Below, in pieces: positions 12,796 to 62,350 of a stretch of 62,350 nucleotides of DNA. Positions within the stretch are counted from its first letter, which is position 1. Each line of letters begins with the position of its first letter. The notes beneath the pieces were generated by a model. The model saw only the letters and a list, made by a program, of their open reading frames with translations, had not been told where the DNA came from and ran no database searches. The position numbers were made by a program, and so were the translations under genes. Source of the stretch: a bacterium (GTDB lineage: Bacteria; Verrucomicrobiota; Kiritimatiellia; RFP12; UBA1067); the NCBI GenBank assembly GCA_025360845.1, contig JANYBJ010000239.1, positions 1 to 62,350 on the forward strand. Direction: 5' to 3'.

Positions 12796-13860
12796 CTACC
12801 ATTTCTCCAACCGTTTCAGGATGTCCGGCTGTACGGCTTCCGGCGCAGCTAGACACACGTACAAACCCTCTGGTTCCATCTCGGCAATGAACGGCTCCAA
12901 CTCGGCGAGCTGGAGATCCACGACAACGCCCTTGCCCGCGGCCTGTATCCGCTTGATCACCGGCAGCCACTGCATGATCGGCAGATCGTCGCCCACCCCC
13001 TGCACGAACTGAACAGCGTGTATCTCCGGCAGCGCCAGAATACTGTCCAAGTGCCGGATCATGCCTTTGCCGTCGAGATGGAACACAGTGTGGGTCATGT
13101 GCCGGACTTCCGCCTTCAGCGAAGGCAGATAAAACGCATCAAAATCCTCTGTCGACAGCATGGAGGTAAAATCGCAACTTGGGATATGCATCTTTCCCCG
13201 GCTCGGTATGCACATCCATGTGACCGAAAGCTGCCCGTGCTTTTTAAGGACAGCGTCGTACTGATCAAACACGGAGAGAAAACTCTTATCCGCCAAGGCG
13301 ACGGCCTCATGAACCTTTTCAGGGCAATCAAGCAGATCCATGCAAAGCACCTGCGGGTCACGCCAGTCCGCCACACAGTCGAGGCTGCCGTGCAGGTCCG
13401 TGTACCCGACCATGAAGCGTCCCTCGCATTTGTCAAGCGCGAGGCGGGTCAGCTCCCCGATCTTTTTGAAGTAGGCGTTCTCGGCGCAGAAGGCCAGCCT
13501 GTTCAAATCGTCCCAGTCGTGGATGCAATGCCGGACCCACGAGGTCACTTCGCCGAAGTCCAGCTCCGCGCCATGAAAGGCCGCAAAAACGTTAGGTCCG
13601 AGATTTGGGGAAAACACCGGGAAGGTCTCGCCGTAAAACCGCCGTCCCTCGATGGAGGCGGCGAATTGGTCCACCTGATGCTCGGCGTCGAACCAGCGCT
13701 CTTTGAGGCTCTGCCATCTTCCGTCTGCACCGGGGCCTTGGCTATACTCCGCGTTGTGGAGGGCAAACCTCACGGGCGGACGGTCAAGCATCTCCTGGCT
13801 GAACCAGGCCTCCACACGCGCCATCGCCCGCTCGAAATCCGGTTTGTTAATGAGTTCCAT
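12796..13860 (-). CDS. UroD/MetE-fold (uroporphyrinogen decarboxylase family) protein
   Basis: Likely start MELINKPDFE at 13860, overlapping the transporter stop. Motifs VGYTDLHGSLD, SCDFTSMLS.E.F..FYLP and VFHLDG. Confidence 0.7.
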   Translation of the reverse strand: MELINKPDFERAMARVEAWFSQEMLDRPPVRFALHNAEYSQGPGADGRWQSLKERWFDAEHQVDQFAASIEGRRFYGETFPVFSPNLGPNVFAAFHGAELDFGEVTSWVRHCIHDWDDLNRLAFCAENAYFKKIGELTRLALDKCEGRFMVGYTDLHGSLDCVADWRDPQVLCMDLLDCPEKVHEAVALADKSFLSVFDQYDAVLKKHGQLSVTWMCIPSRGKMHIPSCDFTSMLSTEDFDAFYLPSLKAEVRHMTHTVFHLDGKGMIRHLDSILALPEIHAVQFVQGVGDDLPIMQWLPVIKRIQAAGKGVVVDLQLAELEPFIAEMEPEGLYVCLAAPEAVQPDILKRLEKW

Positions 13861-51412: not shown

Positions 51413-53341
51413 TCATTTGGGTGATGCCGAGAGTCCGTATTTCGGGGTGCTCTTGCTGAAGACGCGGAGCATCGGCCACTGGCGATGCATCTTCACGTCG
51501 CGCTCCTGACCGGGTGCGATTTTCAACCTTACGTTCCACTCGGGAGTGTCGGCAAAGGGCCAGACAAGGAAGATCATCACCAGGTCGCCGCCGTTGTCCC
51601 ATTTGAAACAGAGCGGCTGTTTTTTTTCGGCCTTTTCGAGAATGTCGCGGCGCTCGTTACCCACAGGGCTCACCCACGATTTGCCGGCGTCCAAGCTGTA
51701 CTCCACAACGCTGCGAGGCATGGTGAGGAACCTTTCGTACTGTTTGAGGCGATACTCGGCCAACTTGGTATAGGCGAGGTTGTAGCGCGGCTCGCGGGGG
51801 TAAAGCGGCCCCTTGGGCACGACGCCCTCACCGCCATCGCTCGGAGCCCCCAGCACCAGCGGCGCCTTGGCCGGGCCGTCCGAGTCGGGTTCCCAGATGT
51901 ACGGCCCCATCCCATAATCATCGGGACGCCTGCTGCGGTCGCTGCCTTCCGGGCCGTTGTCATGCCACCAGTGAAACCCGTCGCCAAACAGGTGGCCGAT
52001 GTAGGTCGCGGTCATCACCCACCAGGGGGCGGGCACGATGCGGTTGTAATAGCCGAGCCACCCGCCTTCCATGCGGATGTACTGGCGGTAGGGCAGATCG
52101 TTGTCCGTGCCGAACCAAGCGAAACCGAGAATGGTGGAGTCAGCCGGGGTGATGAGCTTCGCGTTGATGGTGTCGAACAGATTGCAGTAGATCTGATAGA
52201 TCGCGGTGCGGCGACGATCCGGAAAGATATTCGATTTGAGATACCAGTCGATGGTGTAAACCCGGCAGACCTCGCGCATCGAATGCCGGGTGCCGTCGCG
52301 GTAGGTGAACGACCGGAAGGCGGGTCCGGTGTTCTTCTCGGGGTCTTCGGTCTGTTCAATGAACTGCGGACGCAGCGGATAAGCCTCGCCCTGGTCATAG
52401 AACGAGTTGTTCCATTTAAGGGCACGGTAGTAGTCGCCGCTCTTCCGGGCGGGATTCAACCGGTTCATTTCGGAAATGAAATCGTAATAATTCTGGAGCA
52501 CCTTTTCGTCCGGCAGATCGATGCTCCAGTACGTCGGGGTGTTATGCCAGCCGGGCTGCTTTTCCCAGTCGGTGAGATAAAAAGCGAGCGGCGGGACCTT
52601 CGACGCGTAGCTGGCGAGTTCCTCCTTGCTCAGCGCGGCGAAACCCTGTTCGCCCATGGCATCGAGAGGGTCGCCGACCGTCAACAGCATGTTTTCGTGT
52701 CCGCCCGGGCCCACGCCGCTGGCGGTGTGGCTTGCGCCGTGCCGGAGGATATCCTCCCACGTCTGATCTGCGTTATATCGATAGGAGGGCGAGGTTTTGC
52801 CCAGAATCGGCGCAAAAGGCGGGATGGCCTTAAGCTCCTGATCGCGCCAGTCCTCGGTATCGATGGCAAAGGTCGGAGGAATGAACAACTCGCCCTCCAC
52901 GCCGAGCGGACCGGGCTTGATCACCCACTCCATGGCCGTTTCCGCGTCCTTCAAGTCCCACATGTCTTTGCCCTCCCGCCAGCGTTTGCACTGGATCTGA
53001 CAGATGCCGCCACGCTCCGGCAGAGGATATCCCTTCTCGAGCGAGGGCCCGATGTTCTCCATGTCCACGTAGTAGGCGCGGCGCGGACGGGAGTCCTTGT
53101 AGTCGGCATTCTTGATTCTGTCACGGACGAAGCAGCGCCCGCCTTCCCGATAAATCTCGATGTCCATGAAGCCCGGAAAAGCCTTCGAATAGATGACCTT
53201 CGCCTCGACGTTCCAGGCCGGAATCTTGGTGTTCATCGGCTCGGGCGGCACGCCCCCGGCTTTAACCATTGTTTCTGCGGCGGTGGCTACGTTCGACACA
53301 AAGATGAGAATAATGATCGAGCGGATAGCTAAGTTAATCAT
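51413..53341 (-). CDS. Secreted hypothetical protein (~642 aa)
   Basis: Likely start MINLAIRSIIILIFVSNVATA at 53341; the track's extension to 53614 overlaps the regulator. Aromatic-rich; family not recognised. Confidence 0.75.
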   Translation of the reverse strand: MINLAIRSIIILIFVSNVATAAETMVKAGGVPPEPMNTKIPAWNVEAKVIYSKAFPGFMDIEIYREGGRCFVRDRIKNADYKDSRPRRAYYVDMENIGPSLEKGYPLPERGGICQIQCKRWREGKDMWDLKDAETAMEWVIKPGPLGVEGELFIPPTFAIDTEDWRDQELKAIPPFAPILGKTSPSYRYNADQTWEDILRHGASHTASGVGPGGHENMLLTVGDPLDAMGEQGFAALSKEELASYASKVPPLAFYLTDWEKQPGWHNTPTYWSIDLPDEKVLQNYYDFISEMNRLNPARKSGDYYRALKWNNSFYDQGEAYPLRPQFIEQTEDPEKNTGPAFRSFTYRDGTRHSMREVCRVYTIDWYLKSNIFPDRRRTAIYQIYCNLFDTINAKLITPADSTILGFAWFGTDNDLPYRQYIRMEGGWLGYYNRIVPAPWWVMTATYIGHLFGDGFHWWHDNGPEGSDRSRRPDDYGMGPYIWEPDSDGPAKAPLVLGAPSDGGEGVVPKGPLYPREPRYNLAYTKLAEYRLKQYERFLTMPRSVVEYSLDAGKSWVSPVGNERRDILEKAEKKQPLCFKWDNGGDLVMIFLVWPFADTPEWNVRLKIAPGQERDVKMHRQWPMLRVFSKSTPKYGLSASPK

Positions 53342-53390: not shown

Positions 53391-54287
53391 CTAAACGCGC
53401 GGTTCCGCCCGTTGCGCCGCACGGTAGTCGCGCGGCGAGAGTCCCGTTTTCTTCTTGAAGACCGTCGAGAAATGCGCGGCAGACGGAAAGCCGGTCTGTT
53501 CGGCGACCTTTGACAACGACGCAGTGGATGCCTCGAGGCTGCGGCAGGCGGCGGCCAAACGACGGGTGATCCGGTACTGCGCCGGACTGGTGCCGACCTG
53601 CGCCTTGAAGGCATGCCGGAACGCGGAGTAACTCATGCCCAAGCCGCACGCCACCGTTTCAAGATCCGGGCTCTCGTTCAGCGGTGCCGCATCCAACAGC
53701 GCCCGCGCCCGCTTGATCTTTTCCATGGTCTGAGCAGCCCCGTCCTTCTCCCTGAGCTGAGCATGACATGCGCGTTGCGCGGCATCGACGAGCGCGCGCA
53801 GCTCGGGATAGGCGGCGCCCAAGGTGTCCAGCGGCAAGCGGCTCGACGGCCCCGTGAACCAGATGCCGGCAACCGGCACTCCTGCGGGATCGAACACCGG
53901 CACGGCCAGGCAGTGGCACCCCTCTACCTCCTCGGCCCGGTCCAGCGCATAGCCGCACGCCCGGATCGCGGCCAACTCTTTGCGGAACGCCTGCCGCGTC
54001 GTCAGCGTGTTCTTTGTGAAACGCCGGAACACCATCCGCTTGAAGAGCGCCTCGACCCGCTCACGGGGAAGAAACGCCAGCATCGCTTTCGCCGGCGCGC
54101 CGGTGTGGAGCGGAAAACGGTGCCCCGCACACAGGGTGAAACCGAAACGCCCCGTCTCCTGAACCGCCGCGACGATCACCCCGACCGCTGCCGGCTCGTC
54201 CAATACCGCCAGTCCGACCGTCTCGTGGAAACGCTCGCGGATCTTCTTCAGGCAAGGCAACATCATGTCCGACCAATCAATTTTCAT
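53391..54287 (-). CDS. Hybrid regulator: IclR-type effector-binding domain + C-terminal AraC HTH
   Basis: ETVGLAVL, G.RFPLHTGAPAKAMLA, FTKNT and IRACGYALDRAE..EG..CLAVPV (IclR effector domain); MSYSAFRHAFK..VG.SP..Y and FSTVFKKKTGLSPRDYR (AraC). Likely ATG at 54287. Confidence 0.85.
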   Translation of the reverse strand: MKIDWSDMMLPCLKKIRERFHETVGLAVLDEPAAVGVIVAAVQETGRFGFTLCAGHRFPLHTGAPAKAMLAFLPRERVEALFKRMVFRRFTKNTLTTRQAFRKELAAIRACGYALDRAEEVEGCHCLAVPVFDPAGVPVAGIWFTGPSSRLPLDTLGAAYPELRALVDAAQRACHAQLREKDGAAQTMEKIKRARALLDAAPLNESPDLETVACGLGMSYSAFRHAFKAQVGTSPAQYRITRRLAAACRSLEASTASLSKVAEQTGFPSAAHFSTVFKKKTGLSPRDYRAAQRAEPRV

Positions 54288-54425
54288 GCCCCAGTATAAA
54301 CCCATCGGAAACCGACGTAAACAAACCTTTGCCAAAAAACGAAACTTTTTTGCAAAAATGCCAGAAGAGGGATTTTATTCCGCACAGGGAACGTGCATAC
54401 TAATAACAACTCAGGGGAACAGGTT

Positions 54426-56963
54426 ATGAAATGCAGCGTGCGAGGGATTCTTCTAGGTACACTATGGGTATGCGCGTCGACGTTCGGCGCGTCGGAGTGG
54501 CTCTCACCGGCAGCGCCGGGCGCAGCCTATCCCGACGGCGAGGCCGACCGCCAGTGGGCCTTCCTCGCATACGACCTGACGCAGAAGCCGCGCTTCGCGA
54601 GCTTCGCTGGCGAGACCTGCTGCGCCGACGCTCTGGTCAACGACGCCGACCGCGATCCGCTCGATGTCCTGCTCCGCCGCACCGCGGCGTTGCTGGCCGA
54701 TGTGCGCGCCCTGCCCGGCACGCGCGCCCTCGCAGCGGAACAGCGCGACCTCGACACCCTGCAAGCCGAGTCCGCCGCCGTCGCCACCGATAACGCTGCC
54801 GCACGCCGCGCCCTCTTCAACCGCCTGCTCGTTGTGCGCCGCCGGGTCGCCTTCGCCAATCCCCTGCTCGACTTCAACGGTTTGCTCTTCATCAAGCGCG
54901 AGGTGCGCGGCGTGATGGAGCACTGCTGCGACCAGTTTTACGGACAGCAGCAGCGATCAGGCGGCGGCCTGTTCGTGCTCTCCGACCCCTTTGGCGCAAA
55001 GCCCGGACTGCGTGACCTGCTGGCGGACGCGCGCGTGGCCAACGGGCGCATGAAAGACCAGCCGCTCACGTTCGGCACCCGTGCGACACAGGGCAAAGAC
55101 GGCGGTTCGCTGCTCTCGCCCGCGGTTTCGTATGACGGCAAAGCCATCGCCTTCGCCTACGTCGAAGGTGTCGGTTCGCGTCGCCACATCAGTCACCTGA
55201 ACCACGCGCAGGACGGACACTGGGAACAAGGTTTCTGCTACCACCTCTTTTCGGTCGGCGCGGACGGCAAACAACTCACGATGCTGACGGACGGAACGTG
55301 GAACGACTTCCAGCCCTGTTTCACGCCGGCGGGCCGCCTCGCCTTCATCTCCGAACGGCGCGGCGGGTACCTGAGATGCGGACGCGCCTGCCCGACCTTT
55401 ACGCTTTTCGACATGCTTCCCGACGGTTCGGACATCCGCTGCCTGAGCTTCCACGAGACCAACGAGTGGTCGCCCGCCGTAACGCACGACGGCATGTTGC
55501 TCTGGACGCGCTGGGACTACGTGGACCGCCACGGCTGCACGGCACACCACCCGTGGACGACCACCCCCGACGGACGCAACCCGCGCCCGGTCCACGGCAA
55601 CTATTCGTTCCGCTACAAGCGCGCCGACATGGAACTCGACTCCCGCGCGATCCCCGACTCGCATCGCTTCGTCGCTACGGGCGCGCCGCACCACGGACAG
55701 GCGTTCGGATCGCTGGTCGTGATCGACCCGCGCGTGGCTGACGACGACGCCATGGCGCCGGTGCGGCGACTCACCCCCGACGCAGGCTTTCCTGAGAGCC
55801 AGGGCGGGGCGCAGACGTACGGGACCGCTTGGCCGCTGAGCGAAAAGTACTTCCTGTGCGCGTACGAACCGGCCGAGGTCCAAGGCGTGGCGCAGCAGCA
55901 TGTGTTCGGCCTCTACCTGCTGGACAAGTTCGGCAACAAAGAGCTGATCTACCGCGATCCCGGCATCGCGTGCCTGAGTCCCATGCCGCTGCGCGCGACG
56001 CCCGTTCCGCCGGTGATTCCTGAACAGCGCAAGCCGCTCAAAGCCGGCGGGCGCGGCGAAGCCACCGTGACCGTCGCGGACGTCTACAAGAGCCAGCAGC
56101 CTTGGCCTGCGGGGACCACCATCACCGCCTTGCGTGTGTGGCAGATCTTTCCCCTCTCCGTGGCCTCCGAAGAGGTCCCGCACAATATCGGCCTCCAGCT
56201 ACCCGAAGGCTTCGACTCGATCAACCTCGCACGCGTGGTGCTCGGCACGGTCCCCGTCGAGAAGGACGGCAGCGCGTATTTCAAGGTGCCTGCGGGCGTG
56301 GAGGTCTTCTTTCAGGCGCTCGATGCCAATGGCTGCGCCGTCCAGTCCATGCGGTCCTCCACCGCCTTCATGCCGGGCGAGCAGATGTCCTGTCAGGGCT
56401 GCCATGAGTCCAAAACCGGCGCGCCTGAGCCGACTCCGGCCGCCACGCCTCTGGCCATGAAGCGCGCGCCGTCGATCCTGCGGCCCGGACCCGAAGGCTC
56501 CAACCCCTTCAGTTACCCGCGCCTGGTGCAGCCGGTTCTGGACGCGCGCTGCGTGACCTGCCACGCGGAGAAGATCAAGGCCGCACAGGCCGGGCAGAAG
56601 CTGCCGCCGCGGCTGGACCGGGAACAGATGGAGCTGCCGGTGCAGGGGTGGATGAATAAAACATCTTTATATTATGCCTCTTTTTTGAGTCTCGCCCAGC
56701 CCTACGGCTTCACCACCTACGGCTCGAACCGCGACTGGAACTCGCCGAAGTTCTACCGCACCACGCCCGGCGAGTTCGGCGCCCGAGCCTCCAAGCTCTA
56801 CGCGCTGCTCAAAAAGGGGCACCACGACGTCAAGCTGACCGAGGATGAAATGAACCGTATTGTCACCTGGCTTGACTCGGTCTGCCAGTTCTACGGCGTT
56901 TATGAAAAAGCGGGCGGCGTGGCCCAACTCGCAGGCGAACTCGCCCAGCCCACGCTGCAATAA
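54426..56963 (+). CDS. HzsA-related exported beta-propeller protein with two c-type haem motifs
   Basis: Signal peptide from 54426; FANPLLDF, RWDYVDR, GTVPVEKDGSAYF.VPA...FFQALD and QSMRS; CxxCH at CQGCH and CVTCH. Confidence 0.85.
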   Translation: MKCSVRGILLGTLWVCASTFGASEWLSPAAPGAAYPDGEADRQWAFLAYDLTQKPRFASFAGETCCADALVNDADRDPLDVLLRRTAALLADVRALPGTRALAAEQRDLDTLQAESAAVATDNAAARRALFNRLLVVRRRVAFANPLLDFNGLLFIKREVRGVMEHCCDQFYGQQQRSGGGLFVLSDPFGAKPGLRDLLADARVANGRMKDQPLTFGTRATQGKDGGSLLSPAVSYDGKAIAFAYVEGVGSRRHISHLNHAQDGHWEQGFCYHLFSVGADGKQLTMLTDGTWNDFQPCFTPAGRLAFISERRGGYLRCGRACPTFTLFDMLPDGSDIRCLSFHETNEWSPAVTHDGMLLWTRWDYVDRHGCTAHHPWTTTPDGRNPRPVHGNYSFRYKRADMELDSRAIPDSHRFVATGAPHHGQAFGSLVVIDPRVADDDAMAPVRRLTPDAGFPESQGGAQTYGTAWPLSEKYFLCAYEPAEVQGVAQQHVFGLYLLDKFGNKELIYRDPGIACLSPMPLRATPVPPVIPEQRKPLKAGGRGEATVTVADVYKSQQPWPAGTTITALRVWQIFPLSVASEEVPHNIGLQLPEGFDSINLARVVLGTVPVEKDGSAYFKVPAGVEVFFQALDANGCAVQSMRSSTAFMPGEQMSCQGCHESKTGAPEPTPAATPLAMKRAPSILRPGPEGSNPFSYPRLVQPVLDARCVTCHAEKIKAAQAGQKLPPRLDREQMELPVQGWMNKTSLYYASFLSLAQPYGFTTYGSNRDWNSPKFYRTTPGEFGARASKLYALLKKGHHDVKLTEDEMNRIVTWLDSVCQFYGVYEKAGGVAQLAGELAQPTLQ

Positions 56964-56987
56964 CAATTGGACAAAAAGTAAATGAAG

Positions 56988-57041
56988 GGTAGGGACGGTT
57001 CCCCGAACCGTCCGCGGACGCCTCGGGGAGGCGTCCCTACC
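56988..57041. repeat. REP doublet (GTAG class) forming a composite hairpin
   Basis: Terminal GGTAGGGACG / CGTCCCTACC inverted repeat enclosing two internal hairpins, GGACGGTTCCCCGAACCGTCC and GGACGCCTCGGGGAGGCGTCC. Confidence 0.8.
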
Positions 57042-57068
57042 AGAAAGACCTGTTCCTATTTGGGGAGA

Positions 57069-58082
57069 ATGATGAATGCAACTGAACGCATGTGTGCCGC
57101 GATCCGGCGTGAGACGCCCGACCGGATTCCGACGTTTGAGTGGTTTATCGATGTCCGTGTCGGCCAGGCGCTGACCGGCTCCGATGATCCGCTGGACGTG
57201 GTGGAGCGTCTGGACATCGACGGCATCAACATCCGGCCCGACTACGCGAAACGTTTCATCGACGTCCAGACCTTCGAGGACGAATGGGGCAACCGCCGCC
57301 AGCTCACCGGCGACTGCATCCCCGCCGTCATCGCGCAACCGCTCTCGGACGTCACCCGCCACGCGGAGTTCACGTTTCCAGACCCGTGCGCGGACCACCG
57401 TCTCGCCACGCTGCGGCGTGCCGTCGAGCGTTTCGGCGACACGCGTGCGGTGGTGCTCAACCTGCGCGACGGGTTCTCTGACCTGCGCGACCTGCTGGGC
57501 TACGAAGAGGCGCTGATGGCCCCGCTGGTCGAGCCTGAGGCCTGCGCCGAGTTCCTCGACCGGATCGTCACCTACAACCTGGCGATCGCCGGGCATGCGG
57601 TCCGCACCTTCGGCGTGAGGATCATCGCCACCACCGACGACGTCGCCATGACTGCGGGTCCCCTCTTCTCTCCCGATGTTTACCGTGAACAGCTTCTGCC
57701 CTCGTTCCGCCGGGCGATCCAAGGCTTTAAGGCGCTGGGCTGCCTGACCGTGAAGCACTGCGACGGCAACGTGCTCCCGCTGGTGGATCAATGGATCGAA
57801 GCCGGTATCGACTGCCTCGACCCGATCGATCCGGGCGCCGGGCTGACCATGTCCGATATGAAGGCTAAGTACGGCAGCCGGATCGCGCTCAAGGGCAACA
57901 TCGACTGCGTACACACCCTGTGTGCCGGCACGCCCGACGAGGTGCGCGAAGAGGTGCGCCGCTGCATCGCCGACGCCGGTCCCGGCGGGTTGATCGTCTC
58001 GTCCAGCAACACGATTCACCGCGGCGTGAGACCCGCGAACTACCGCGCCATGCTGGAGGCGCTGCGGAGGTACGGTGCGTAG
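57069..58082 (+). CDS. UroD/MetE-fold (uroporphyrinogen decarboxylase family) protein
   Basis: DEWG, TTDDVA....PLFSPD.Y, KHCDGN, ID.L.PID, LKGNID and SSSNTIH. Likely start 57069 or 57072; the track's 5' extension is the REP. Confidence 0.8.
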   Translation: MMNATERMCAAIRRETPDRIPTFEWFIDVRVGQALTGSDDPLDVVERLDIDGINIRPDYAKRFIDVQTFEDEWGNRRQLTGDCIPAVIAQPLSDVTRHAEFTFPDPCADHRLATLRRAVERFGDTRAVVLNLRDGFSDLRDLLGYEEALMAPLVEPEACAEFLDRIVTYNLAIAGHAVRTFGVRIIATTDDVAMTAGPLFSPDVYREQLLPSFRRAIQGFKALGCLTVKHCDGNVLPLVDQWIEAGIDCLDPIDPGAGLTMSDMKAKYGSRIALKGNIDCVHTLCAGTPDEVREEVRRCIADAGPGGLIVSSSNTIHRGVRPANYRAMLEALRRYGA

Positions 58083-58101
58083 AACAAGGGCCTTTGGTTT
58101 C

Positions 58102-58170
58102 CGTTTGTAGTGTGCCCGTAAGGGCATTCCGTCGGCTCGTGAGACACGCCTTACGGCGTCACTACAAACG
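58102..58170. repeat. Inverted REP doublet (GTAGTG type)
   Basis: 11-bp terminal inverted repeat CGTTTGTAGTG / CACTACAAACG, with related inner palindromes TGCCCGTAAGGGCA and ACGCCTTACGGCGT. Confidence 0.8.
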
Positions 58171-58211
58171 AAAGGAACGCTCTTTCAGACAGAATAACAC
58201 GGAGGCGAAAG

Positions 58212-59222
58212 ATGACGACTGGATTGATGCTGATTGTACTGGGCGCGTTGTGTGGCGGATCCTTCGGTCTGCCCAGTAAATTCGTGCGTAAGGGGACGCC
58301 GTGGGAAACGCTCTGGGGTCCCTTCTTTTTCTTCGCCACGATCCTTCTGCCGCTGCTGGCGGGGCCCGCGCTGGTAAAGGATTTGTTCGGCCTTTGCGGT
58401 TCGCTCACGCCCAGCCAGTGGATCGGTCCGGTGGTTTTCGGCTTCCTGTGGGGACTGGGGTCGATGACGCTGGGACTCAGCTTCGCTTTCGTGGGACTCT
58501 CGCTGGCCTACGCGATCAACTACGGCGTGCAGATCGCCTTCGGCATGATCGTTCCGGCGCTGATCTTTACCCCGAGCGTCTTCGGCACGGCCAAAGGCGC
58601 GATGATGCTGGGAGGCGCGGCGGTCTGCATTTTGGGCGTCGTGGCGTCCGGCAAGGCAGCGCTTCTCAAAGAGCTGAGCGGCAGCGCAGCCCAAGCGCCG
58701 CGCAAGCTCGGCAAGGGGATTGCCGTGGCCGTGATCTCCGGCGTGCTCTGCGCCTGTTACGCGCTGGCCTTCGGCTTCGGCGGCGACGTCATGAAACAGG
58801 CCTCCGCCGCGCCGTTCGACAATCCGGGGTGGCGGGCGAGCTTCGCGGTGACCGCGCTGGCGCTCTGGGGCGGGTCGCTCTCCGCCTGCGGCTACTGCGC
58901 CCAGCAACTGACCGCGAACAAGACCTGGTGTACGCTGGTGGGTCCGGGCGTGCTGCCGGTCTACGCCATCGCCTTCGCGATGGCCCTGCTGCACGACGGC
59001 GCCATCGCCTGCTTCGGCGTCGGCTCGCCGATGCTGGGCGCGCTCGGCGTCTCGGTCGGCTACGCCATCTTCATGTCGCTCGCGATTTTCACGGGGACCG
59101 TCAACGGCTTTCTGACCGGCGAGTGGCGCGGTGCCGACACCCGCGCCGTACACGGCATCCGGCTCGCCTTGGCGATTCTGGTGGTCGGCGTCTGCATCCT
59201 GGCCTGCGCCAATGCGATGTAA
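58212..59222 (+). CDS. L-rhamnose/proton symporter RhaT-family transporter
   Basis: GGSFGLP.K......WET.W, FGFLWGLGSMT.GL, GLSLAYAI..G and NG...GEWR motifs; ~10 TM segments. Confidence 0.85.
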   Translation: MTTGLMLIVLGALCGGSFGLPSKFVRKGTPWETLWGPFFFFATILLPLLAGPALVKDLFGLCGSLTPSQWIGPVVFGFLWGLGSMTLGLSFAFVGLSLAYAINYGVQIAFGMIVPALIFTPSVFGTAKGAMMLGGAAVCILGVVASGKAALLKELSGSAAQAPRKLGKGIAVAVISGVLCACYALAFGFGGDVMKQASAAPFDNPGWRASFAVTALALWGGSLSACGYCAQQLTANKTWCTLVGPGVLPVYAIAFAMALLHDGAIACFGVGSPMLGALGVSVGYAIFMSLAIFTGTVNGFLTGEWRGADTRAVHGIRLALAILVVGVCILACANAM

Positions 59223-59273: not shown

Positions 59274-60053
59274 ATGAGTACAATCAGATCCATAGACTTT
59301 TTCCTGCGCGGCAAAGTGTCCGGCGTCGATTTGACGCCGCGCACAATTGGTTTGTCCCAGTTTAACGAGTTTAACCAACAGGTGGAGGCTTTCCTTGCCG
59401 GTTCTCAGAAGGGAAAACAGAACGAGACGCATGTAGAGATCGGGGAAGGCTCCTACAAGCTACGGGTCATCCTTACCGCCGCGACCTCTTTGGCATTGGA
59501 GACTGACCTTGCCGTGCTGACCCGGGAAGATTCTTTGGGAGAGATTGATCCAAAACGAGCGGAAGTGGTTGCCAAGTGGCAGGCGAACGCCCGCAAGGAC
59601 GGCGGGTTGGAATACGACATCAAGCCCGACCGGGAAGATTTGCCCACCGTGCGACTGACACACTCTTCAGACTTCCGTGTGGGAGCCGTCGTTCCTTGGG
59701 TGACGGTAGAGAAGTATTTGTTCGGCATAATCGAGAACATGGGCGGAGCTCAAAAGGCCAATGTTCACTTGCGGTTGCGGGATACAGGGCAGACGGTCAT
59801 CGTCAATACGTCTCAGGACTACATCCGTGATGAACCTCAAAACCGCGTGTACCGCGACGCACTTTTGCGGGTGCGTGCTGAACAACACTTTCGGACAGGC
59901 CAGTTGCGGAACGTGCATTTGATCGCTTTCGAGGACTACGAGCCTACCTACGATGAGGAGGCACTCAATCGATTTACCGAGCAGGGCGCGGAAGCATGGC
60001 GCGACGTCCCGGACGCCGTGGCGTGGGTTCGCGAACAACGGGGAGGAACGTGA
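59274..60053 (+). CDS. Hypothetical protein translationally coupled to a PIN gene
   Basis: 259-aa ORF with AT-richer codon usage; its TGA overlaps the next ATG (TGATG, 60051-60055). Confidence 0.8.
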   Translation: MSTIRSIDFFLRGKVSGVDLTPRTIGLSQFNEFNQQVEAFLAGSQKGKQNETHVEIGEGSYKLRVILTAATSLALETDLAVLTREDSLGEIDPKRAEVVAKWQANARKDGGLEYDIKPDREDLPTVRLTHSSDFRVGAVVPWVTVEKYLFGIIENMGGAQKANVHLRLRDTGQTVIVNTSQDYIRDEPQNRVYRDALLRVRAEQHFRTGQLRNVHLIAFEDYEPTYDEEALNRFTEQGAEAWRDVPDAVAWVREQRGGT

Positions 60054-60565
60054 TGGGCGCCGGTATCGTACTCGACACGTCTTTTCTCATCACGTTGGCT
60101 GACCCGGCTCGAAACCACCACGAGATCGCCCTTCGTTATTGGAGACATTTCATAGAAGATCGTATACCCGTGTTCCTGCCGACTATCGTAGTCAGTGAAT
60201 TCTGTGTCCGGCAACCGATCCCGCCCGAAATCCTTAGATCTTGCATTGTTCTACCCTTCAACTGGGATGATGCCATCAAAACGGCGGAGTTGGATTTTAA
60301 GCCGTTCAAGGCAGATGGCGAGAGTAGTCCGGCGATCAAAGATGACATGAAGATCATCGCGCAAGCCGCTATTTGCGATGCGCGGCATGTCATTTCTGAA
60401 GACGCTGATACGCCCTTACGCTATGTGATGCAACTCAACGAGACCGGCAAGATCCGCGTACAGGCGATCTGCCTGCGGGACGGCTTCGACAGGTCTTTTT
60501 CCGACGTGAACGGCCAATGCGATTTCCACGACGCGCTCGATGCGGCTGACGCCGATGCGGAGTAG
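60053..60565 (+). CDS. PIN domain protein (putative RNase)
   Basis: Start MGAGIVLDTSFLI; acidic residues in VLDTS, VVSEF, IKDD.KIIA and ISED. Confidence 0.85.
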   Translation: MGAGIVLDTSFLITLADPARNHHEIALRYWRHFIEDRIPVFLPTIVVSEFCVRQPIPPEILRSCIVLPFNWDDAIKTAELDFKPFKADGESSPAIKDDMKIIAQAAICDARHVISEDADTPLRYVMQLNETGKIRVQAICLRDGFDRSFSDVNGQCDFHDALDAADADAE

Positions 60566-60735
60566 CTGCAGGCTTGGCGAATCGACACGCCTAGCAGCAC
60601 GATCATAGATCGGGTTAACCTCAACTCCCGTCTGCACTGTGATTCATAGCCGTATGGGTCAGTATATGACGCGATCTCTGAGGCGATCTGGTGCGTCAGG
60701 AGTCCACCAGAAGCCCTTCAGTGTCAGTTCTACGG

Positions 60736-62350
60736 TCATAGTTTAGAAACTTCCACGATGGCGATCTCTTCGGGGGTGAGCGCGTAGAGCTGATAGACCA
60801 GCGCGTCGATCTGGCGGTCCGTCGCGTGAAGCTGACGCTGGACCGCCTCTTTCTCGTCTGGAGATCGAGCGGCGTTTACCCGCGCGTGCAAGGCAGTCAT
60901 CCTTTCCGCTGCCTGCCGCAATACGACCGCCACCTCTTCGCCTGGAAGCGCGACCGGAAGCTGCTCGATATACTGGCGGTTGAGGGCGATATACCCGCCG
61001 CGGAACGGCGTGCTGGTCGCCCGCAGATACCGGCTGATCAGTGTCGAGTTGAGAATCCCGAGGAGGCTTCCGTAACCGATCGCGGCCGGCTCCCGGAGAA
61101 TGACGCCGTACCCGCCACCGCCCCCGCCGCCACTGCCGACAAAGGTGTACATTCCATCAAGGTCGGGCGCAAAGCAGCTCCCCGTCGCAAGGGAGGGGAC
61201 AAGCAGCTTGGGAAGCGCCATCCGGGTGTGGTTTTTCTTGTAAACATAACCGTGCCAGTCCGCGCCCATCCGCCCCTTGTTGCGCGCCGACAGGCGGGGC
61301 TGGCATTCGCTGAGATAAGCCCACGTCAGGGGAAAACGCGCCGCGTATTCGGCGGGCGGAATCAGAACGGATTTCCCGTCGCGCATCTCATACGGGAAGA
61401 CCAGAAGCTTGGAAACGTCGGAAAAGTGATAGCGCCGGATATTGAGCGAACCTTTGAGGAAAGGCTTCAGGTGCTCGGCCTCCAACCAGTGCTCGCGGCC
61501 CGTATGCCGGGAGCGGCAGAGTACCCGGTTCTTCGTCCGCCGGGCTTCCTCCAGGATATAGACGTCGTCGGCGTCCGTCTGGATGCCGACGAACAAATCG
61601 GCGATGTCGCCCAGCTTCAGCGGCCATTTGCCGAGACGCTCGAACAGCCCCGCATCGGGGCCGACCGCGAAATTCCATTCGTCTGCGGTGATGCTCCGGG
61701 CTGGGACGATTCCCTCGGTTTGCAGAGCATCGCGCGTCTGCCTCCTGACCCGATAGACGGCAGCAGCCTCACTAACTGACACCGCTTCCGCTCCGACATC
61801 ACCGGTGTCATCGGATTGCGACAATTTGCGCAGCCAAGCCTGTAAGTCATGTACCTTGATGAAACGGCACGCATCGGCTCCTGCCTTGTCGAGAAACATC
61901 AGGCATGTGTAGGTTGTCGCTTGCGCGAAAACCTGCTGATCACCGAAATGCACGACGTGGGAAAGGTGCCGCCCCTTGGCGATGATCTCGCGCAAAGCAG
62001 AGCCGTATTGCGCGTTAAAGAACTTGTGCGGCAGGATAAATCCGGTCCGTCCGGTTGGATTCAACAGGCCGAGGGCCTTTTCCACAAAGATCACGTAGAT
62101 GTCATAATTACCCGAAGCCGCCGAGCGGTAAAGCGTCTTGTAGAGTTCTACTTCGATCGGTGACCCTTCCTTCAGAACCTGGATGCGGATATACGGCGGG
62201 TTGCCGATGACGCAATCGAAACCGCCGCGTTTCATGATGGAGGGGAAGCCCTTGCTCCAGTCGAAGACGTTGATGCGGTACTGGGTGTCATCGTCGAGCA
62301 GGAGCATCTGCTCTTGCGCGTAGAAGTCGGGACCGATGAGGGAGTTGCCG
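60736..62350 (-). CDS. Type IIG (Eco57I/TaqI-like) restriction-modification enzyme, 3' part; 5' end lies outside the window
   Basis: GGFDCVIGNPPY adenine-methyltransferase motif IV, YDIYVIFVEK, a TaqI-C-like target recognition domain (KLLVPSLA) and the tail QIDALVYQLYALTPEEI. The frame is open to the window end. Confidence 0.9.
   Translation of the reverse strand, partial: GNSLIGPDFYAQEQMLLLDDDTQYRINVFDWSKGFPSIMKRGGFDCVIGNPPYIRIQVLKEGSPIEVELYKTLYRSAASGNYDIYVIFVEKALGLLNPTGRTGFILPHKFFNAQYGSALREIIAKGRHLSHVVHFGDQQVFAQATTYTCLMFLDKAGADACRFIKVHDLQAWLRKLSQSDDTGDVGAEAVSVSEAAAVYRVRRQTRDALQTEGIVPARSITADEWNFAVGPDAGLFERLGKWPLKLGDIADLFVGIQTDADDVYILEEARRTKNRVLCRSRHTGREHWLEAEHLKPFLKGSLNIRRYHFSDVSKLLVFPYEMRDGKSVLIPPAEYAARFPLTWAYLSECQPRLSARNKGRMGADWHGYVYKKNHTRMALPKLLVPSLATGSCFAPDLDGMYTFVGSGGGGGGGYGVILREPAAIGYGSLLGILNSTLISRYLRATSTPFRGGYIALNRQYIEQLPVALPGEEVAVVLRQAAERMTALHARVNAARSPDEKEAVQRQLHATDRQIDALVYQLYALTPEEIAIVEVSKL

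Follow-up and report, generated by a model that had tools for sequence, protein, structure and literature searches.

An HzsA-related haem protein and a UroD-fold enzyme in a probable sugar-utilisation operon of Kiritimatiellia

What brings together an exported di-haem protein related to the alpha subunit of hydrazine synthase (HzsA), a protein with the fold of uroporphyrinogen decarboxylase (UroD) and a rhamnose-type sugar transporter? Genes for three such proteins follow one another on the same strand at 54426-59222 of a 62,350-nucleotide stretch of DNA (hereafter the window), which is contig C186 (JANYBJ010000239.1) of a 5.17-Mb draft genome in 326 contigs; the nearest named homologues of the window genes come from metagenome-assembled genomes of Kiritimatiellia. 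We call the haem protein HZS (54426-56963, plus strand, 845 aa) and the UroD-fold enzyme URO (57069-58082, plus strand, 337 aa); the third gene encodes a RhaT-family (DMT, drug/metabolite transporter) sugar:H+ symporter (58212-59222, plus strand, 336 aa). The open reading frames (ORFs) of the first two allow two starts each, at 54393 or 54426 and at 56982 or 57069. The first-pass annotation, made from the sequence alone, had proposed a module composed of an exported haem protein, an inner-membrane symporter and a cytoplasmic barrel enzyme, and our analysis arrived at the same topology. We consider it slightly better than an even bet (probability of about 0.55) that the window contains, in these three genes, part of a conserved sugar-utilisation operon under regulator control in the Planctomycetota-Verrucomicrobiota-Chlamydiota (PVC) superphylum, a reading based on gene order and linkage seen across genomes, with a chemistry that we infer.

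Conserved linkage of the genes of the proposed operon

A scan of representative genomes for URO gave 80 more loci in Kiritimatiellia, Verrucomicrobiota, Planctomycetota and Lentisphaerota, plus one in a member of the Bacteroidota and one in a spirochaete; 82 loci were counted. With identity cut-offs of at least 40% for the FGGY sugar kinase and at least 45% to the window's protein for HzsA-like genes, the partners found in the 82 loci were FGGY (45), RhaT (24) and HzsA-like genes (23), and the respective numbers were 25, 12 and 17 in the 38 loci where URO is flanked by 5 kb or more on each side. In 19 of the 82 loci, no more than 400 nt lie between URO and a RhaT orthologue at least 50% identical to that of the window. 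The linkage supposed from the window alone was thus found again across genomes, in this survey as well as in the gene tree and the 61 relatives described below.

Three relatives whose proteins are 75-93% identical to those of the window share the order HZS-URO-(RhaT)-FGGY, preceded in two of the three by a divergent regulator. While HZS-URO-RhaT-FGGY is the Kiritimatiellia order, Verrucomicrobiota and Victivallales have URO-HZS-RhaT-FGGY-SGL-SDR-DeoC-ZnADH (SDR, short-chain dehydrogenase; ZnADH, zinc-dependent alcohol dehydrogenase), and in Planctomycetota HZS stands at the end of SGL-GldA-2HADH-aldolase-SDR (2HADH, 2-hydroxyacid dehydrogenase), which diverges from SDR-FGGY-URO-GFO (GFO, GFO_IDH_MocA-type oxidoreductase). 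The gene order has been rearranged between phyla, and the genes are still kept together. Over 76 loci, the recurrent neighbour families are sugar-catabolic; among them are SDR, GldA-type iron-dependent alcohol dehydrogenase, class II and DeoC aldolases, ZnADH, a GFO oxidoreductase with a Tat signal and an exported SMP-30 propeller.

In a tree built from the genome's own HzsA-like paralogues and all HzsA-like genes of the URO loci, the window HZS belongs to a clade A (support 1.0), eight of whose nine tips are situated no more than 110 nt from URO. Its sister clade B (support 0.95; 1.0 for the two clades jointly) contains the URO-linked copies of other phyla. Although clades A and B account for only 2 of the genome's 36 paralogues, 22 of the 34 HzsA-like genes found near URO belong to them (binomial 7e-20, shared ancestry uncorrected). 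Among 61 relatives, the nine genomes that bear URO each have a clade-A-like HZS as well (Fisher 2.8e-6, uncorrected for phylogeny); it adjoins URO in six of them and is 6.7 kb away in one.

The same data supply most of what weighs against an operon that includes HZS. Of the 18 relatives with a clade-A HZS, nine have no URO; a same-genus genome has its 86%-identical HZS orthologue between a response regulator gene and panB and bears no URO orthologue; the genome's own clade-B copy, on contig C258, is away from URO; and in Kiritimatiellia the gene 5′ of URO varies (HZS, GH127, a giant CotH protein or an AMP-ligase), GH127 hydrolase occupying the HZS slot in locus L012. The genes of the foreign loci, moreover, were called with a crude ORF picker. 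Only URO, RhaT and FGGY might then form a functional unit, with HZS as a frequent, unrelated and merely co-inherited neighbour from a huge family scattered in glycan loci. The paralogue count favours this view too, since only one of the 36 own HzsA-like genes adjoins a PF01208 (UroD-family) gene, with about 0.3 expected by chance (an estimate from 36 x 2 x 19 / 3756). However, the linkage is clade-specific in four phyla and persists where the operon has been rearranged, no relative with URO lacks a clade-A-like HZS, and the HZS-URO gap in L003 is only 6 nt. We therefore hold a chance association to be unlikely, even if it is the alternative that fares best. The HZS-URO coupling is real but asymmetric: in the 61 relatives, the catabolic genes always occur with this HZS, and HZS can occur without them.

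Two members of the unit had been overlooked in the first-pass annotation. The FGGY kinase is the most constant partner of the URO gene. Its orthologue in our genome is encoded on another contig (C107:1886-3445) and shares 94% identity with the kinase of the L003 operon, in which 181 nt separate the RhaT gene from FGGY. The window has, 3′ of RhaT, a gene for a 259-aa protein and a PIN gene (59274-60565, plus strand), a pair also present on this side of RhaT in L011 and L012. Convergent to the pair is a restriction-modification gene of type IIG (MmeI/Eco57I-like; 60736-62350, minus strand), of which the contig end leaves only the C-terminal half; the N-terminal half of this enzyme is encoded by the first ORF of C107 (HSDR_N, N6_Mtase, MmeI_Mtase, Eco57I). 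The two gene halves, the FGGY gene next on C107 and the arrangement in L012, where the 259-aa/PIN pair stands directly between RhaT and FGGY, suggest that the operon has been split by a defence island of about 5 kb (window 59274-62350 plus C107:1-1576) inserted between RhaT and the kinase gene; C186 and C107 are joined here, provisionally, on the strength of the two gene halves. The kinase itself is equidistant from xylulokinase, fuculokinase and glycerol kinase, the models of all three score below their cut-offs, and neither NCBIfam nor the PDB favours one specificity.

The second overlooked member is the divergent regulator (53391-54335, minus strand), in which an IclR-type ligand-binding domain is fused to an AraC-type helix-turn-helix (Pfam IclR_C, E 1.1e-32, together with HTH_18 and HTH_AraC), with no IclR winged helix-turn-helix detected. 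It belongs to the operon unit. Its orthologues are divergently upstream of an HzsA-like gene in L003, L006, L009 and L010, and of the six hybrid IclR_C-AraC regulators in the genome (in the window and on contigs C117, C227, C326 and C72) three directly adjoin HzsA-like genes and two more are 2-4 genes away.

Just as first described, the three same-strand genes have REP-like (repetitive extragenic palindromic) hairpin doublets as spacers, at 56988-57041 (inverted repeats I1, I14 and I16) and at 58099-58173 (inverted repeat I2), and their arms recur tens of times in the genome. Each doublet is composed of two hairpins enclosed by an outer stem, which in the first doublet is GGTAGG/CCTACC around two 9-bp stems. 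Exact genome-wide copies number 40 and 49 for the hairpins of doublet 1 and 37 and 11 for those of doublet 2, which also gives 71 blastn matches genome-wide. Since L003, the closest relative, lacks doublet 1 and has the 6-nt gap in its place, doublet 1 is a recent insertion into the operon. A scan for sigma-70 promoters and terminators found no terminator-like site between the three genes, which is weak evidence. Farther upstream, between the regulator and GH127, the window encodes an exported protein of 642-733 aa (51413-53341, minus strand) that is 93% conserved at the same position in L003 and has no Pfam or NCBIfam match.

The exported haem protein HZS

The N-terminus of HZS, MKCSVRGILLGTLWVCASTFGA-SEW, reads as a Sec signal. 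The two CxxCH motifs noticed at first sight, CQGCH and CVTCH, are the only ones in the protein, and their residues (C656/C659/H660 and C709/C712/H713) are invariant among 30 homologues, as are clusters of His, Cys, Arg and Asp in the propeller. The genome has the cytochrome-c (haem-c) maturation genes. The middle domain matches PF18582 (E 1.9e-22). The predicted model (pLDDT 84) has as its best PDB match the HzsA of Kuenenia stuttgartiensis (5C2V_A; E 2.5e-28, 842 columns, TM-score 0.56/0.61), followed by bare TolB propellers. HZS and HzsA thus share the propeller, middle and C-terminal domains over the whole length, and both CxxCH motifs align with the two haem motifs of HzsA.

In spite of this likeness, the identity between the two proteins is 16%, and the host of HZS is a non-anammox sugar degrader with 36 such paralogues and the gene in a sugar-catabolic operon. 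The NCBIfam hydrazine_alpha model (NF052339) gives HZS 27.6 bits vs. a cut-off of 800, and no counterpart of the HzsA partners HzsB and HzsC (beta and gamma) is among the eight annotated ORFs around HZS, though no dedicated whole-genome search for HzsB/C was made; the annotated neighbours are the regulator, the UroD-fold and RhaT genes, GH127, GH39 and one unknown protein. From this score and the lack of beta/gamma-like ORFs among the annotated neighbours, we conclude that HZS is not a hydrazine synthase.

Rather, HZS is a member of an uncharacterised PVC family of HzsA-related proteins: more than 3800 homologues were retrieved at E<=1e-5, one of them named 'HzsA-related protein', and its relatives are 55-91% identical over 97-100% of the length. 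The genome itself has 35 HzsA-like paralogues by PF18582 and 36 by blastp, 28 with exactly two CxxCH motifs. The statement that HzsA-like proteins outside anammox bacteria have no assigned function agrees with the literature consulted (PMC12758564). Like the HzsA-related (HZS_alpha) proteins of PVC bacteria in general, HZS is exported, bears two haem motifs and is encoded among glycan-degradation genes; unlike them, its clade is headless and tied to a defined cytoplasmic pathway. The URO-linked HzsA-like proteins of other phyla carry NPCBM or F5/8 lectin heads; clade A has lost such a head, which is present in sister clade B and in other URO-linked copies.

The genome's own clade-B copy (C258:2215-12791, locus L092) is NPCBM-headed and adjoins genes for a xylose-isomerase-like TIM barrel, a GFO_IDH_MocA oxidoreductase and a 1151-aa FG-GAP/HEAT/F5-8 protein, a set that recalls oxidative (3-keto) glycoside cleavage systems. 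In Bacteroides thetaiotaomicron, a control genome, one PF18582 match is above the cut-off. An assignment of this match to BT2160, taken as a gene of the 3-keto-glycoside cluster, was rejected as wrong, for BT2160 is a SusR regulator. Fitness data for B. thetaiotaomicron might give a phenotype for the HzsA-like family.

HZS could also be an electron-transfer cytochrome that does not act on glycans and reoxidises periplasmic sugar dehydrogenases (Tat-exported, GFO- or ThuAB-like), in which case an oxidised sugar, e.g., a keto-sugar or an aldonate, would be imported. Periplasmic 3-ketoglycoside dehydrogenases dependent on cytochrome c are known and offer a precedent (PMC8121099). Genes for GFO oxidoreductases with a Tat signal, for a ThuA-like protein and for an exported propeller of the SMP-30/lactonase-like type are found repeatedly in the URO loci, and the clade-B copy stands beside a GFO gene and the xylose-isomerase-like barrel. 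But no GFO gene is found in the window or in the other Kiritimatiellia operons; GFO genes are not enriched near the HzsA-like genes of the genome (2 observed vs. 2.6 expected); there is no haem-copper oxidase to take electrons from cytochrome c; and a large, highly conserved propeller with invariant residue clusters exceeds the needs of an electron carrier. We judge such a role to be rather improbable, less probable than the chance association discussed above.

The UroD-fold enzyme URO and the RhaT-family symporter

Both a codon-usage gene caller and homologue alignments place the start of URO at 57069 (MMNATERM...). The alternative ATG at 56982 is inside the REP element, and the codon statistics and homologues rule against it. 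URO matches PF01208 with 81.9 bits (cut-off 23.9; E 5.7e-23), and its AlphaFold model (pLDDT 94) is closest in the PDB to the methyltransferase MtaA (4AY7, TM-score 0.78) and next to UroD (about 0.75). By sequence, the PDB UroD entries match URO with E 0.0015 or worse. URO orthologues show unusually high conservation, with 54-93% identity across PVC phyla (about 60% between Kiritimatiellia and Pirellulales), and a tblastn search of plasmids gave only matches of 26-31% identity.

Like MtaA and HemE/UroD, URO has the (beta/alpha)8 UroD fold and the PF01208 domain. It was first described as having HCDG and SSSNT in place of the zinc-binding set of MtaA and as lacking the RQAGR motif of HemE. Both motifs are present, at residues 230 and 311, and RQAGR is absent, but HCDG is better read as H-x-D-G, because KHCDG of URO aligns with LHICG of MtaA, so that H-x-D replaces H-x-C. 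As to SSSNT, which had been put at the site of the second Cys ligand of MtaA, it is invariant in the orthologues, and in the alignment to the E. coli-type UroD (3CYV) it pairs with NLGHG. The other invariant motifs among orthologues are PTFEWF, NLRDGFSD, ATTDD, KHCDG, LDPIDP and LKGN. The NCBIfam models that URO hits are of the MtaA type only and all stay below cut-off (TIGR01463, MtaA/CmuA, 79.3 vs. 235.4 bits), no corrinoid- or B12-binding family is among the annotated recurrent neighbours of URO loci, and where MtaA and HemE go with corrinoid or haem-synthesis genes, the partner of URO is a sugar kinase. From these sequence features, URO appears to be neither HemE nor an MtaA-type corrinoid-dependent methyltransferase. 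It is therefore very unlikely that URO is a methyltransferase that strips methylated deoxy-sugars (2-O-methyl-fucose, for example) of their O-methyl groups ahead of phosphorylation, for although MtaA is its best sequence and fold match and 13 paralogues keep H-x-C-G, one of them paired with a RhaT paralogue beside fucosidase-like genes, the zinc-thiolate Cys of MtaA is Asp in URO, the distal Cys region is SSSNT, the MtaA/CmuA score is far below the cut-off and no corrinoid protein recurs nearby.

The genome encodes 19 PF01208 paralogues, 13 with H-x-C-G and only two with K-H-x-D-G, and these two (URO and a 37%-identical protein on contig C83) are exactly those that abut FGGY kinases. So many putative Zn-dependent alkyl-transfer barrels are surprising in an organism that degrades glycans by fermentation, and near the paralogues that were examined no corrinoid partner was evident. 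The second K-H-x-D-G gene (KHTDG) lies in the operon GldA - GlpD-like - URO′ - FGGY′ - class II aldolase (C83:5967-12641, locus L090), 3′ of a GH29 alpha-L-fucosidase gene, and this set of genes also adjoins the URO operon in the Verrucomicrobiota loci L081-L085.

The transporter had been assigned to the RhaT family, and this is borne out by PF06379 (62.4 bits vs. a cut-off of 27, residues 2-330). Its best score with a RhaT equivalog of NCBIfam is 185.7 vs. 369, thus below the level that implies specificity for rhamnose, and the rhaA gene of the genome is on a contig other than that of the RhaT gene. The idea of a recurrent design, a UroD-family gene paired with a sugar transporter gene, holds only in part. 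It was based on a second pair within the window, which is unsupported: the gene at 12796-13860 (minus strand) gives no UroD signal with Pfam (even with the limit relaxed to E<=10), with NCBIfam, in a sequence search of the PDB or in hhalign (probability 0.3%). Pairs do exist elsewhere, on contig C207 and in the Bacteroidota locus L064, where two tandem UroD-family plus RhaT-family pairs are found. The pair on C207 (6847-15565, locus L089) has a UroD-family protein with H-x-C-G and a divergent AraC regulator, and adjoins genes for a DUF5703/GH95-like protein and a GHL6/fucosidase-like protein. On contig C174, a 50%-identical paralogue of the protein encoded at 12796-13860 directly adjoins a genuine PF01208 gene.

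A possible pathway and its substrate

In E. coli, deoxyhexoses are used through operons such as rhaT with rhaBAD and fucPIK. The URO operon has the same general plan: symport with protons, preparation of the sugar by a barrel enzyme, phosphorylation by an FGGY kinase, then an aldolase step, under an AraC-type regulator. It differs in having a UroD-fold protein where an isomerase would be expected, in including an exported haem protein, and in that RhaA and FucI are encoded elsewhere. As the genome has a canonical RhaA and two FucI-type genes at other places, the substrate differs from those of the E. coli operons and is not plain L-rhamnose or L-fucose. The possibility that URO is a replacement rhamnose or fucose isomerase was ruled out on the same ground.

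Taken together, the data fit an operon composed of the divergent IclR_C-AraC regulator and HZS - URO - RhaT - FGGY kinase. In this scheme, the target of HZS would be a glycan or a sugar located outside the cytoplasm; read in analogy to polysaccharide-utilisation loci, the lectin heads of related copies and the GH127 gene in the HZS slot of L012 suggest that the sugar to be taken up is generated there. RhaT would import the resulting small, probably deoxyhexose-like sugar, which URO and the FGGY kinase would then convert in two successive cytoplasmic reactions and so commit to central metabolism. Its further conversion in other phyla may fall to aldolases, to short-chain and Zn dehydrogenases and to a GldA-type aldehyde/polyol dehydrogenase. 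As Asp takes the place of the zinc-thiolate ligand (H-x-D), URO would be expected to use a His/Asp, probably metal, site for an isomerisation, epimerisation or decarboxylation directly before or after phosphorylation. That HZS modifies a sugar by means of its haem, as the first-pass annotation supposed, is pure inference.

The nature of the substrate is only weakly hinted at. A deoxyhexose-like sugar would agree with the family of the transporter (RhaT), with the resemblance of the kinase to fuculokinases, with the aldehyde reductase of GldA type, with the fucosidase-like genes beside the paralogous modules and with the NPCBM heads. To the counter-evidence given above belong, however, similarly weak hints at an acidic sugar, namely the IclR-type sensor, the neighbouring 2-hydroxyacid dehydrogenases, the decarboxylase fold and the many conserved Arg and Lys residues, whereas RhaT suggests a neutral one. 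On the same side stand the lack of any known sugar-converting UroD-fold enzyme in the literature or among the PDB fold matches, and the lack of a haem-copper oxidase in the genome, which makes a simple role of HZS in periplasmic oxidation feeding respiration unlikely.

The most far-reaching version of the operon reading joins both enzymes. According to it, one HzsA-like clade would be a non-hydrolytic, haem-dependent extracytoplasmic enzyme that frees one particular sugar, probably of the deoxyhexose type, from a complex glycan or modifies it, and the K-H-x-D-G UroD-fold protein would represent a new sugar-converting activity with a dedicated FGGY kinase, in an undescribed pathway common to Kiritimatiellia, Verrucomicrobiota, Planctomycetota and Lentisphaerota. 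We offer this joint version tentatively, as possible but clearly less assured than the existence of the operon.

Both orphan families have already been catalogued, one as Pfam PF18582 and the NCBI 'HzsA-related protein', the other as 'uroporphyrinogen decarboxylase family protein'. We came across no paper that treats the pairing of URO with FGGY or its link to one HzsA-like clade, and neither the literature on UroD-like enzymes in sugar operons nor a 2026 preprint on Kiritimatiellia synteny has anything on these genes. What stands in the window is part of a probable sugar-catabolic operon with two uncharacterised enzyme types. The tie between one HZS clade and a pathway with an importer, a converting enzyme, a kinase and a ligand-sensing regulator provides a tractable, testable handle on a large orphan family of haem proteins, because identifying the sugar recognised by the kinase, by URO or by the regulator would reveal the product of HZS. 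If the proposed roles are true, the UroD fold, known so far for porphyrinogen decarboxylation and methyl transfer, would acquire a third chemistry, and a catabolic route of abundant, poorly cultured polysaccharide degraders would be described.

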